DNA of 37,280 bases from Candidatus Aenigmatarchaeota archaeon (lineage in GTDB: Archaea > Aenigmatarchaeota > Aenigmatarchaeia > GW2011-AR5 > JACRAC01): the NCBI GenBank assembly GCA_039091255.1, contig JAWCMQ010000002.1, positions 142,126-179,405 on the forward strand. The letters are read 5' to 3'. The first letter of the stretch is position 1; every line of letters begins with the position of its first letter. Positions 4,855 to 26,095 of this stretch are shown one piece after another. The notes under the pieces were generated by a model. It was not told the DNA's origin and made no database searches. It saw only the letters and a program-made list of their open reading frames with translations. Both the position numbers and the translations under genes were made by a program.

Positions 4855-5356
4855 GTGGTGACCTGGCATAGCCCGTCTTATGTAAGCCCTTTTGCTAGCG
4901 CAAAAGCGCTTGCGGAAAAGGAGCGTGTCCCGCTTCCTTTCAAAAGGGCCTTGCAACATTTGTCTAAGCGCTACGTTGATATTCTAACCGCTCTTGTCAC
5001 GATAGCCGCTCATGCCAAAGCGAGAGCGGCTATTGTTGCAAAAGCGGCCGAAATCCCAACCCTCTTGCACCCGCGCGTGCCGGACCCGTTTCAACTTATC
5101 ATAACTGCGAAGCGGCTATTCGTAGAATAACCGCTGAGCAGCTATATGCAACGTCATTCATGCGTCGGTTGCTAAGTGCGTTTCTGTGATCCGGCAACAG
5201 ACTCTCGCCCGTAACCTTAACGGATCGCGCTTTTGCAGGTGCTAATCTAACCGTCCGCCTTTACGCGAACGCGGTTATTTCACATTCCTGCAGAGTGGAC
5301 AGAGCTTCCTCAGCGCTGCTGTTACGCAGAACCGAAGTTGCAGCTCAGGTCACCAC
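4855..5356. ncRNA. ~500-nt structured RNA locus closed by a 12-bp terminal helix; identity and strand unresolved (5S-like motifs on +, RNase P-like motifs on -)
   Basis: 4855-4865 gtggtgacctg is the exact complement of 5346-5356 caggtcaccac. There is no credible ORF. The locus contains one family-A module (4884-4921) and the same hairpin modules as the rRNA spacers. TATA-like boxes lie on both sides (4831-4838 for +, ~5380-5388 for -). Confidence 0.6.
4884..4921 (+). repeat. family-A module copy (only copy in plus orientation)
   Basis: aagcccttttgctagcgcaaaagcgcttgcggaaaagg. AAGC...GCTT outer pairs, CTTTTGC/GCAAAAG hairpin, GCGGAAAAG tail. Confidence 0.85.
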
Positions 5357-13006: not shown

Positions 13007-13051
13007 GTAAAGTCTTTTCCGCCAGCGCTTTTCGCGCAGCGAAAAGGGCTG
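13007..13051 (-). repeat. 16S insertion, family A
   Basis: It splits GGTAGGGGTAAAA|ATTCCTTTAATC. Sense CAGCCCTTTTCGCTGCGCGAAAAGCGCTGGCGGAAAAGACTTTAC. Confidence 0.85.
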
Positions 13052-16435: not shown

Positions 16436-17164
16436 ATGCTAGCTTTACAGAATCTAGCAGATTTCTTGGAATCGGTTGCAAAGTGTATTCGTGAAAGGTT
16501 CTTCGCTACAAGCGTAACAGCCATCATACCAGCATACAACGAAGCGGCAACTGTAGGCAAAGTTGTCCAAGCAGTGTCCAAGGCAAAAGTCGATGAAATC
16601 ATAGTTGTTGATGACGGAAGTTGCGATGAGACAGCTGAGGTGGCAAGGCGCGCCGGCGCTAAGGTCCTCGTGCATGCGCGAAACAGGGGCAAAGGCTGTG
16701 CAATGAAGACTGGCCTAAACGCTGCAAGCGGGAAAATCGTCGTTTTCATAGATGCGGACCTGAAATCGCTTACTCCACAAAAAGTGAATATGCTGATAGA
16801 ACCCATATTGAAAGGCAAAGCTGATTTCGTAAAGTCTTATTTTTCAAGCTACAAGTCAAAAACGGGAACCAGCATATTCCTCTATCGCCCGCTGCTCAAG
16901 CACCTGTTTTCGACCACGGCATTCAAGCATCCGGTTAGCGGCCAAATCGCTGGCTGGAAAAGCTTTTTCGACGACATAGAATTCAGGAACGACTACGGCA
17001 TAGACATCTCCATCCTCATTGATGCCATCAGGCGCCGCATGAGGATAAAAGAGGTCTGCTTGGGAAAGTTGTCGCATAAGCCCAAGAGTCCGCGGGAAGT
17101 CATGGAAATGGCCGATGTGATAATACAGACCATACTCGAAAAGGCGGATGTATTAAAGCGTTAA
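16436..17164 (+). CDS. family-2 glycosyltransferase
   Basis: IIPAYNEA...VVDDGSCDET...NRGKG.A...FIDADL motifs. Confidence 0.8.
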   Translation: MLALQNLADFLESVAKCIRERFFATSVTAIIPAYNEAATVGKVVQAVSKAKVDEIIVVDDGSCDETAEVARRAGAKVLVHARNRGKGCAMKTGLNAASGKIVVFIDADLKSLTPQKVNMLIEPILKGKADFVKSYFSSYKSKTGTSIFLYRPLLKHLFSTTAFKHPVSGQIAGWKSFFDDIEFRNDYGIDISILIDAIRRRMRIKEVCLGKLSHKPKSPREVMEMADVIIQTILEKADVLKR

Positions 17165-17775
17165 TGCTACATGTATATCAAAAGTGGCTTGGGATAATGG
17201 ACACTGTTTCGGCTGCGGTTCTTCTTGCCATAGGCGTCTGCGTCGCTACATTGGCGAACGTGCTCATAAAGCGTGCCGCGCAGGCGACGATCTTTCGGTG
17301 GTCGAAAAGGATAAGTCACCAAGTTCACACGCGTGTTATTTTTATTGTTAACATCGTTGCGATGGCTGTTAGCGTAGCCATAGCGCTTTTCTTTTTCGCT
17401 GAAGCCATGACAGCGCTGGAACTTAGCACCGCGAGTCGCCTGTTTGAAGCGGCTTCAGCTCAGCTTTCGACGATTGTCATTGCCGGTGTGATACTTGTTA
17501 CAGGAATAATAGCCGCGAAGGTTGTGGCACTGAAAGTGGAACGCCTCGATATCCCAAATCGCCAATTTGCCGCTATGTTGCTGGAGATTTTAATCCTCAC
17601 GGCAACAATCCTCACGGCCGTAGAAAACCTCGGCCTGAAAATAACGGCTTTCATGGAGATGTTCCGTGCAGCGGTGTGGAGCACTGCCTTGGCTGTGGCG
17701 ATAATCTTTGGAATCTCAGTAGGCTTCGTGCTGAAGCCTAAGATTGCGAAATTGCTGAAAGAAGCCAGAGGTTGA
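17164..17775 (+). CDS. membrane protein with repeated conserved-TM-helix segments
   Basis: About 5 hydrophobic helices. The ATG overlaps the GT2 stop by 1 nt. Confidence 0.55.
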   Translation: MLHVYQKWLGIMDTVSAAVLLAIGVCVATLANVLIKRAAQATIFRWSKRISHQVHTRVIFIVNIVAMAVSVAIALFFFAEAMTALELSTASRLFEAASAQLSTIVIAGVILVTGIIAAKVVALKVERLDIPNRQFAAMLLEILILTATILTAVENLGLKITAFMEMFRAAVWSTALAVAIIFGISVGFVLKPKIAKLLKEARG

Positions 17776-17809
17776 TGCTCCCAGGGGGATTTGAACCCCC
17801 GTCCAGGGC

Positions 17810-17823
17810 TTTCCACTCTTTCA
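17810..17823 (-). other. tRNA-Glu intron 3 (14 nt, at or next to 37/38)
   Basis: Sense TGAAAGAGTGGAAA. Its GAAAG can pair with the anticodon-loop CUUUC. Confidence 0.5.
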
Positions 17824-17830
17824 TCGAAAG

Positions 17831-17892
17831 CTTCCGTCCGCACGCCGAAGCGTGCAGCATTCGGCTTTCTCAACTCCTTCGCAGAGCGAAGG
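17831..17892 (-). repeat. tRNA-Glu intron 2 (62 nt, between positions 31 and 32), degenerate family-A-like start
   Basis: Sense CCTTCGCTCTGCGAAGGAGTTGAGAAAGCC...GCACGCTTCGGCGTGC...GGAAG. Confidence 0.5.
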
Positions 17893-17912
17893 GCCCTTAT
17901 CCTTGACCGGGA

Positions 17913-17975
17913 TGTCCAGCCTTGCTCCTCTTTTCCGCCGGCGCATTGGCGTGCGCCACGCGAGCAAAAGGGCTG
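17913..17975 (-). repeat. tRNA-Glu intron 1 (63 nt, D-loop), family A
   Basis: Sense CAGCCCTTTTGCTCGCGTGGCGCACGCCAATGCGCCGGCGGAAAAGAGGAGCAAGGCTGGACA. Confidence 0.7.
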
Positions 17976-18060
17976 CTAGACGATGGGAGCCTGTGCAAGC
18001 CAGGGTGCCAATCACCCAGGCGAGTGGGCCGGGGCAGAATCGAACTGCCAATCTCCTGCT

Positions 18061-24922: not shown

Positions 24923-26095
24923 ATGACAAAAAGAAACGGTAACTATTTGTTCACCTCAGAGTCTGTGACCGAAGGCCACCCAGACAAAATTTGTGATCAG
25001 ATTAGCGACGCAATCCTCGACGCCATGTACGCCAAAGACCCTTATTCCCGCGTAGCCGTCGAAACGCTCGTAACAACAGGCCTTTGCATAGTCGCAGGCG
25101 AGGTTACGACATCGTGCTACATTGACATCCAAGACACGATTCGCAAGACCATTCGCGACATCGGCTACACCAGCGACGTGCTCGGCTTCGATTTCGACTC
25201 ATGTGGAGTGCTTGTGGCAATTCACGAGCAATCGCCCGACATAGCGCAAGCCGTTATCAAACATGCAGACCACGAAGACCTTGGCGCAGGCGATCAAGGC
25301 CTGATGTTCGGTTATGCCTGCAACGAGACGCCAGAGCTCATGCCGCTACCCATATCGCTTGCGCACAAGCTTTGCATGCGCCTAGCTGAGCTGCGCAAAA
25401 GCGGAGAAATAAAGTGGCTGCGACCTGATGGCAAGTCTCAAGTGACCGTCGAATATGAGAACGGCAGACCGAAGCGCGTGCATACTGTAGTTGTCAGCAC
25501 GCAGCACGATCCTGGCGTTACAAACGAACAAATCCGCACAGAAATCATAGAAAAGGTCATCGAGCCTGTATGCGGGCGCTGGATCGACGAGCGCACAATT
25601 TTTCATATAAACCCCTCAGGCCGCTTCGTGCTAGGAGGTCCTGCAGGCGACACTGGCGTCACTGGACGAAAAATAATCGTTGACACCTATGGCGGTATGG
25701 GCAGCCACGGCGGTGGCGCCTTTTCCGGCAAAGACCCTACCAAAGTCGACCGTTCGGCATCTTACATGGCACGCCATGTAGCAAAGAACATCGTTGCAGC
25801 AGGATTGGCAGAAGAGTGTGAAGTTCAACTTTCCTATGCAATCGGCATCGCCGAACCCGTATCGGTTCTTGTGAACACTTTCGGCACCGGCAAGCTGCCA
25901 GACGAAAAGCTGGCTGAGCTCGTTCGCAAAGTCTTCCCGCTGAAACCCGCACAGATAATCAGGTACCTGAATCTTCGCAGACCTATATACAGGAAGACTG
26001 CAGCTTACGGCCACTTCGGCCGCGAAGACCCCGATTTCACATGGGAAACCACAAACAAAGTTGAGGAGCTTAGGCAAGCAATCCAATCGTTTTAA
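24923..26095 (+). CDS. metK: S-adenosylmethionine synthetase, bacterial/eukaryotic MetK type
   Basis: [37 protein letters not shown] and [16 protein letters not shown] are hallmark MetK motifs. Confidence 0.93.

Follow-up and report, generated by a model that had tools for sequence, protein, structure and literature searches.

A tRNA-Glu(UUC) gene with C33 in its anticodon loop, probably interrupted by two BHB introns, in an archaeal contig rich in mini-introns

Introduction

The canonical archaeal BHB consists of two 3-nt bulges around a 4-bp helix H, with each cut following the second base of a bulge (PMC4090602). In the archaeal tRNAs known to carry several introns, insertions at the 37/38 site are combined with others in the D-loop, bounded by BHB or relaxed BHB motifs, and the genes are missed by standard finders (PMC4090602). 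In the Thermoproteales, near-identical short introns are found in unrelated tRNA genes and at differing positions, a pattern described as intron transposition (PMC4090602). Departures from U33 also have precedents, as C33 is found in the elongator tRNA-Cys(GCA) of the Sulfolobales (PMC7668247) and in the eukaryotic initiator tRNA-Met (PMC5041475).

Here we analyse a tRNA-Glu(UUC) gene in a 37,280-nt stretch of archaeal DNA, referred to throughout as the window. The gene likewise combines a 37/38 and a D-loop intron with BHB and relaxed BHB motifs and escapes standard detection, but it is probably DPANN-related, carries two introns rather than three and features a nested BHB within the canonical intron. 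It shares C33 with the Sulfolobales tRNA-Cys(GCA), yet it is a tRNA-Glu(UUC) from another lineage in which position 33 covaries with an intron base. As in the Thermoproteales, its D-loop intron is one copy of a spread family; unlike there, the family also occupies 16S, 23S, a tRNA spacer and RNase P RNA, all within a single contig. A tRNA-Glu(UUC) spliced at two BHB introns is a known kind of gene, and it is C33 and the nested BHB that are less ordinary.

Results and Discussion

An interrupted tRNA-Glu(UUC) gene in a Ser-Val-Glu cluster

A scan for acceptor stems and T-arms delimits a minus-strand gene running from GCTCCCA to TGGGAGC-A, with a perfect 7-bp acceptor stem, the T-arm GGGGG-TTCAAAT-CCCCC and no encoded CCA. 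Within a minus-strand Ser-Val-Glu cluster it occupies third place, and the contig is also present in the Logan assemblies of two public runs, SRR27730040 and SRR27730043. The closest named relatives of its proteins, at 40-49% identity, carry the annotation Aenigmatarchaeota, which makes an uncultured DPANN-type archaeon the probable source; the same set of proteins recurs on a contig of 201 kb. The features considered below are as follows, where p denotes a position in the 215-nt precursor and the window coordinate equals 17991 - p.

17776..17990, minus strand: whole tRNA-Glu(UUC) gene, 215 nt
17976..17990, minus strand: exon 1, GCUCCCAUCGUCUAG, tRNA positions 1-15, identical in all six orthologs
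17912..17975, minus strand: intron 1, 64 nt, at D-loop position 15/16 (16/17 equally possible by sequence alone)
17887..17911, minus strand: exon 2, CCCGGUCAAGGAUAAGGGCCCUUCG, comprising the remainder of the D-arm, the 5' strand AGGGC of the anticodon stem and CCUUCG at loop positions 32-37
17811..17886, minus strand: intron 2, 76 nt, at the canonical 37/38 site, from BHB scans and orthologs
17776..17810, minus strand: exon 3, comprising A38, GCCCU, GGAC, the T-arm, UGGGAGC and the discriminator A
17876..17892, minus strand: anticodon-intron hairpin CCUUCGC-UCU-GCGAAGG, from folding, competing with helix H of intron 2
17831..17859 (p132-160), minus strand: nested BHB within intron 2, 29 nt, with an alternative register at 17858-17832 (p133-159)
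17824..17830, minus strand: supposed micro-exon CUUUCGA, assigned to intron sequence by the MFE fold and BHB scan
18462-18327, minus strand: tRNA-Ser(GCU), first gene of the cluster
18252-18025, minus strand: tRNA-Val(UAC), second gene of the cluster, 228 nt
16374-16243: tRNA-Leu(GAG)
13884-7321: 16S / tRNA-Ala / 23S operon

Default ARAGORN detects none of the five window tRNAs, and three of the five, not including tRNA-Glu, are recovered by the Rfam tRNA model. We favour, with a probability of about 85%, a reading of the locus as a tRNA-Glu(UUC) gene that is functional and carries two BHB introns, as predicted from its motifs and relatives. Exons of 15, 25 and 35 nt then yield a 75-nt mature tRNA, which ARAGORN folds into a normal cloverleaf and labels tRNA-Glu(ttc); UUC stands at positions 34-36, and the gene is orthologous to recognised tRNA-Glu genes. 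A preceding sequence-only reading had already recognised here a 215-nt tRNA-Glu(UUC) with the paired acceptor stem GCTCCCA/TGGGAGC, in agreement with both our scan and ARAGORN, and had described it as interrupted several times, as it proves to be. The anticodon stem AGGGC/GCCCT and variable loop GGAC that it proposed are present in exons 2 and 3. That reading offered two parses, and the spliced forms of both are labelled tRNA-Glu(ttc) by ARAGORN.

On the opposite strand, an open reading frame at 17164-17775 encodes a predicted membrane protein of 203 amino acids and abuts the 3' end of the tRNA-Glu gene; a search of 5.8 billion protein clusters for homologs returned only the protein itself. 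Another plus-strand frame, at 24923-26095, carries the three domains (S-AdoMet_synt N, M and C) of a bacterial/eukaryotic-type S-adenosylmethionine synthetase, a type that is not known to be the usual one in archaea.

Splice motifs place one intron in the D-loop and one at 37/38

A first, loose BHB scan returned an excess of chance matches, and the scoring was then tightened and shuffles were added. Cuts were placed by the canonical rule, of which Marck and Grosjean, in 2003, are reportedly the source. Within the contig the rule fits the tRNA-Ser intron, a 51-nt insertion with the strict BHB CUGC[UA^U]...GCGG[UU^A]GGCGG, and one 16S intron, a 47-nt insertion bounded by GUAA[AA^C]AG...CU.UUAC[AU^U] whose excision restores the conserved GU-AAAA-UCC loop.

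Intron 1 is bounded by a relaxed BHB of the HBh' type, GUCU[AG^C]AGCC...GGCU.GGAC[AU^C]CCGG, with a 4-bp H (GUCU/GGAC), a 4-bp h' (AGCC/GGCU) and, as bulges, AG^C and AU^C; the helix h on the exon side is missing. Homologs without the intron provide a direct check on these cuts. The positional orthologs L010, L013, L016 and L018 all read straight from GTCTAG into CCCGG, and the tRNA-Glu(CUC) genes of one Bathyarchaeota and two Micrarchaeota MAGs (L004, L006 and L007, found by scanning a genome collection with exon 2) continue from GTCTAG into CCCGGTCAAGGATAAGGGC; the predicted excision gives the sequence of all seven. In the MAFFT alignment the insertion follows directly on G15 and stops right before CCCGG. 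Since the intron-free orthologs all join GTCTAG to CCCGG, the mature D-loop is AGCCCGGUCAA and the tRNA 75 nt long. The ortholog L009 (JGI Ga0068707_1014956) is interrupted at this position too, by an intron of 48 nt in which h' has changed from AGCC/GGCU to AACC/GGUU, a compensatory replacement. A D-loop intron had been proposed in the sequence-only reading and does exist, although its length of 63 nt (17913-17975) has to be revised to 64 nt (17975-17912) in line with the BHB rule and the intron-free relatives. The same evidence, with the MAFFT alignment, shows its 12-nt D-loop AGUCCCGGUCAA to be one base off, and the pattern AGTCCCGGTCAA, given there as typical, occurs in no relative that we found.

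Intron 2 is bounded by an hBHBh' motif, AGGGC.CCUU[CG^C]UCU...AGA.GUGG[AA^A]GCCCU, which stacks directly on the anticodon stem and is the best-scoring BHB to touch that stem in scans with the nested element either present or removed. Two 3-nt bulges and helix H are accompanied by h, which is the 5-bp anticodon stem AGGGC/GCCCU itself, and by a 3-bp h' (UCU/AGA). H joins CCUU (17892-17889) to GUGG (17816-17813) and in the window is paired at three of four positions, with one U.U mismatch and a G.U pair, while all four positions are paired in L009 (CCUU/GAGG) and L018 (CCUU/AAGG). The second parse of the sequence-only reading, a single 76-nt intron with C at position 33, coincides with this intron (17886-17811) and is upheld by both the BHB and the orthologs.

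The MFE fold offers instead of the BHB an unbroken 8-bp helix, thermodynamically preferred, which we reject on comparative grounds: a single change in L009, U176A, removes the sole mismatch from H and at once disrupts the competing helix. The hairpin at 17876..17892 has equivalents throughout the orthologs, with CCUUCG/CGAAGG in L018 and CUUUC/GAAAG in the genes with U33, a further covariation, and within this hairpin L009 differs from the window only in the loop.

Orthologs, covariation and C33

Syntenic loci were fetched through a neighbouring ATP-grasp protein, and the Ser-Val-Glu cluster is kept in all of them. Six orthologous tRNA-Glu genes, from other metagenomes, were available; the contigs P0004, P0006 and P0009 end short of tRNA-Glu and were left out. 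The genes, with the window for comparison, are of the following types.

L010, L016 and L013/L014: U33 type, with U26, anticodon stem CCGCC/GGCGG and one 40-44-nt intron
L018/L019: C33 type, with A26, AGGGC/GCCCU as in the window and one 44-nt intron, D-loop intron absent
Window and L009: C33 type, with A26, AGGGC/GCCCU, the D-loop intron and a 76-nt intron with the nested BHB

Perfect BHBs flank both shorter introns: CUUU[CA^A]...AAAG[AA^C] in the U33 type and CCUU[CG^A]UUG...CAA.AAGG[AC^A]GCCCU in L018/L019. The U33-type positional orthologs occupy the same cluster and have acceptor, D and T arms identical to those of the window, and unlike the window they lack both the D-loop intron and the nested BHB.

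Position 33 itself pairs within the intron motif, with the base at n-3: C-G in the window, L009 and L018 and U-A in L010, L016 and L013, or three C-G and two U-A among the five distinct sequences. These sequences form a small sample, five from two clades and related to one another, in which 90% of 60 pair cells are paired (35-55% with the 3' partners displaced by one to three columns), three stem pairs change on both sides between the clades, and the observed covariation score is reached by none of 500 shuffles.

The resulting anticodon loop is C32-C33-U34-U35-C36-G37-A38 (CCUUCGA), and MAFFT aligns the window's CCTTCG with CCTTCG in L018 and CTTTCA in L010. The invariant U33 of elongators is thereby replaced by C in the window, L009 and L018/L019. 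This runs against a nearly universal rule with few known exceptions and counts against the two-intron reading; C33 elongators are nonetheless known, and C33 is a departure within the tRNA-Glu family that gives no ground for excluding the gene from it. We found only three independent C33-type lineages, a scan of viral contigs for the C33 motif returned no matches, and the literature that we searched yielded no report of a C33 elongator tRNA-Glu(UUC).

Twelve exon positions distinguish the C33 type from the U33 type, and every one of them belongs to the anticodon arm or the variable loop, outside of which the window exons equal the tRNA-Glu(ttc) exons of L010 and L016. The C33-type arm (A26, AGGGC/GCCCU) is identical to those of the Bathyarchaeota and Micrarchaeota tRNA-Glu(CUC) genes, where the loop is CUCUCGA as compared with CCUUCGA here. 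These identities suggest that the whole anticodon arm may have been exchanged through recombination with a gene of the CUC type.

A decaying pseudogene, present in the C33 lineages while a normal tRNA-Glu(UUC) encoded elsewhere does the work, would account for the unusual C33 and for a gene so loaded with insertions, and a second, U33-bearing tRNA-Glu(UUC) may be present elsewhere in these genomes. Decay is nevertheless hard to reconcile with exons that are identical or nearly so in three lineages while the introns diverge: the exons show no differences from L009 over the 51 nt available and one in 75 positions from L018, as compared with 11 of 76 positions in the anticodon intron of L009 and a largely different intron in L018. 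Compensatory changes moreover maintain the BHB helices, and the gene keeps its position in the conserved tRNA cluster. The pattern fits selection acting on both exons and splice structures, and we regard the pseudogene explanation as improbable.

A nested BHB accounts for the supposed micro-exon

The predicted two-intron gene has a further peculiarity, namely that its top-scoring BHB overall lies inside intron 2. It reads GAAA.GCCG[AA^U]G-(8-bp hairpin, UUCG loop)-A.CGGA[AG^C]UUUC, with h formed by GAAA/UUUC, H by GCCG/CGGA, the bulges AA^U and AG^C, and h' by the 8-bp hairpin with its UUCG cap. Its score is equalled by 24 of 500 dinucleotide shuffles. In L009 the change A158C gives four Watson-Crick pairs in the nested H, and the hairpin is retained through compensatory changes; the element is absent from L018 and from the U33-type genes. 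Another candidate inner intron, p116-168 with CGAA/UUCG, was dropped in favour of p132-160, which scores better and is conserved.

This element bears directly on the first parse of the sequence-only reading, which postulated three introns (in the D-loop; of 62 nt at 31/32 or 32/33; and of 14 nt at 37/38 or 38/39) around a 7-nt micro-exon, CUUUCGA, with the canonical U33; the product of such splicing would contain AAGGGCCUUUCGAGCCCU. The appeal of such a parse is considerable: the loop is the textbook CUUUCGA, and we roughly estimate the chance of the exact 7-mer in 76 nt at ~0.4%; CUUUCG followed by AUGAAAG resembles the loop and intron start CUUUCA-AGCAUGAAAG of the U33 type; the 14-nt piece has the same 3' BHB half, GUGG[AA^A]; and the heptamer is conserved in L009. 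Its junctions, however, do not hold. The 62-nt intron (17892-17831) requires a junction of C98 with C161 or of C99 with U162, and no BHB with a strict or one-mismatch H provides one, in the primary transcript or with the other introns removed. The 14-nt intron (17823-17810) would have a weak H (C-G, U.G, U.U, U.G) and an h' of 1 bp, in place of which the geometry supports one canonical 37/38 intron. As for the exon (CTTTCGA, 17830-17824), the heptamer does not occur in L018/L019, which have the same anticodon arm, and since L018 lacks it, C33 is the only possible reading there. CUUUC (17830-17826) is already explained by its pairing with GAAAG (17869-17865) as the outer helix of the nested BHB, seen in the MFE fold too, and the predicted canonical 37/38 BHB on CCUUCG would be cut regardless. 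With BHB geometry and six orthologs pointing to two introns only, we consider the three-intron parse even less probable than a pseudogene, and attribute it to the insistence on U33.

The nearest motifs at 31/32 and 32/33, AGGG[CC^C]...CUUU[CG^A] and GGGC[CC^U]...GCCG[AA^C], were rejected, as their products have no usable anticodon loop. The heptamer's CUUUC is constrained as a strand of the nested-BHB helix; the heptamer may be a relic of an ancestral U33 loop, and would still not be an exon. The stretch that follows its CUUUC, GAUGAAAG, is common to L018 (GAUGAGAA), and the closing ...GGAAG-CU-UUCG-AU is similar to how the 47-nt 16S intron ends, ...GGAAAAG-A-CU-UUAC-AU.

U33 could also be recovered by shifting the anticodon stem by one base to GGGCC/AGCCC, giving the loop CUUCGAA (CUUCGAC in L018) and the anticodon UCG of a tRNA-Arg-like molecule, which is the least probable of the alternatives: ARAGORN with -i does label L018 and L019 as tRNA-Arg(tcg) of 77 nt, the call on L018 arising because U33 is forced, but the shifted stem contains a C.A mismatch, requires a two-base connector from the D stem to the anticodon stem as well as a variable loop of 5 nt, and puts the 3' cut right after H rather than in the bulge, contradicting the BHB geometry that works elsewhere in the genome, and the acceptor, D and T arms are those of unambiguous tRNA-Glu(UUC) orthologs at the same cluster position.

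Intron 1 belongs to a family of mini-introns

Intron 1 belongs to a mini-intron family of the form CCCUUUUGC...GGCGGAAAAG, matched by the family profile at 17972-17928 with E = 1e-4; intron 2 and the nested BHB are not matched by it. Copies are ~45-50 nt long, with a consensus of roughly CAG-CCCUUUUUGCUGGCGC-AAAA-GCGCCGGCGGAAAAG and the hairpin form CCCUUUU(U)GC...GCGC-AAAA-GCGC...GGCGGAAAAG. At least 14 lie in the window, all of them in structural-RNA genes or a tRNA spacer:

13711-13676, 13439-13394, 13051-13007, 12828-12790, 12459-12425 and 12202-12178, minus strand: 16S
10333-10289, minus strand: 23S
11389-11344, minus strand: tRNA-Ala
18423-18376, minus strand: tRNA-Ser
18321-18254, minus strand: Ser-Val spacer
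18162-18144 and 18098-18063, minus strand: tRNA-Val
17972-17928, minus strand: tRNA-Glu
16349-16313, minus strand: tRNA-Leu

Recognisable BHB ends are seen, at the least, in the Ser, Leu and Glu copies and in the one at 13051 in 16S. By analogy, the spread of the family looks like intron transposition.

Several neighbouring RNA genes are likewise enlarged. The 16S gene (13884-11733, minus strand) is 2152 nt long where its model has 1478 nt, and the 23S gene (10996-7321, minus strand) 3676 nt where its model has 2987, each with many insertions of 48-94 nt, and the tRNA-Ala(UGC) gene between them has a 45-nt intron. The RNase P RNA (4858-5353, minus strand) scores 38 bits with Rfam RF00373 against a gathering score of 84, low because of its insertions, one of which (4887-4922) is a copy of the mini-intron family, apparently inverted relative to the RNA. 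The tRNA-Val(UAC) gene has a D-loop insertion of ~114 nt with several hairpin elements, where its relatives in L010 and L016 have none, and a 37/38 intron with a mismatch in H and an h' that is not adjacent; a recursive search for strict BHBs did not find a complete splicing path for this gene.

A proposed route to the mature tRNA

The computed motifs, junctions and covariation allow a maturation route to be proposed, whose steps (co-transcription, cleavage, ligation and eventual aminoacylation) are predictions from sequence. The tRNA-Glu gene is probably co-transcribed with the upstream tRNA-Ser and tRNA-Val, and the archaeal splicing endonuclease would cut each BHB at both of its 3-nt bulges: in the D-loop at G15^C and at U^C16, releasing 64 nt, and at the 37/38 site at G37^C and A^A38, releasing 76 nt. 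The three exons would then be ligated and CCA added, to give a 75-nt tRNA with the D-loop AGCCCGGUCAA and the anticodon loop CCUUCGA, in which the spliced reading contains AAGGGCCCUUCGAGCCCU. The nested 29-nt BHB may be cut as well, leaving the product unchanged. Among the 10 window ORFs examined, no splicing endonuclease gene was identified.

Concluding Remarks

With the micro-exon claim failing, a would-be record-small tRNA exon is removed, and the gene takes its place as a standard multi-intron archaeal tRNA gene whose main value is as a caution for annotation. Insistence on U33, by software or by readers, leads to a wrong parse, as when ARAGORN misses the window gene and calls an ortholog tRNA-Arg, and automated annotation of the clade may consequently miss tRNA-Glu(UUC) while listing a spurious additional tRNA-Arg.

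Beyond annotation, we put at slightly better than even odds a broader picture of a DPANN-like clade with a C33 tRNA-Glu(UUC), possibly its sole GAA decoder, locked in by covariation with the intron, its anticodon arm seemingly swapped whole from a tRNA-Glu(CUC)-type gene, with a twintron-like nested BHB and with mini-introns in 16S, 23S, tRNA and RNase P RNA. A C33 elongator tRNA-Glu in three lineages, with the accompanying intron covariation, would be one of the few departures from the U-turn rule seen in nature, with a possible bearing on decoding and on wobble-base modification, and the nested BHB and mini-intron family would together provide material on how protein-spliced introns spread.
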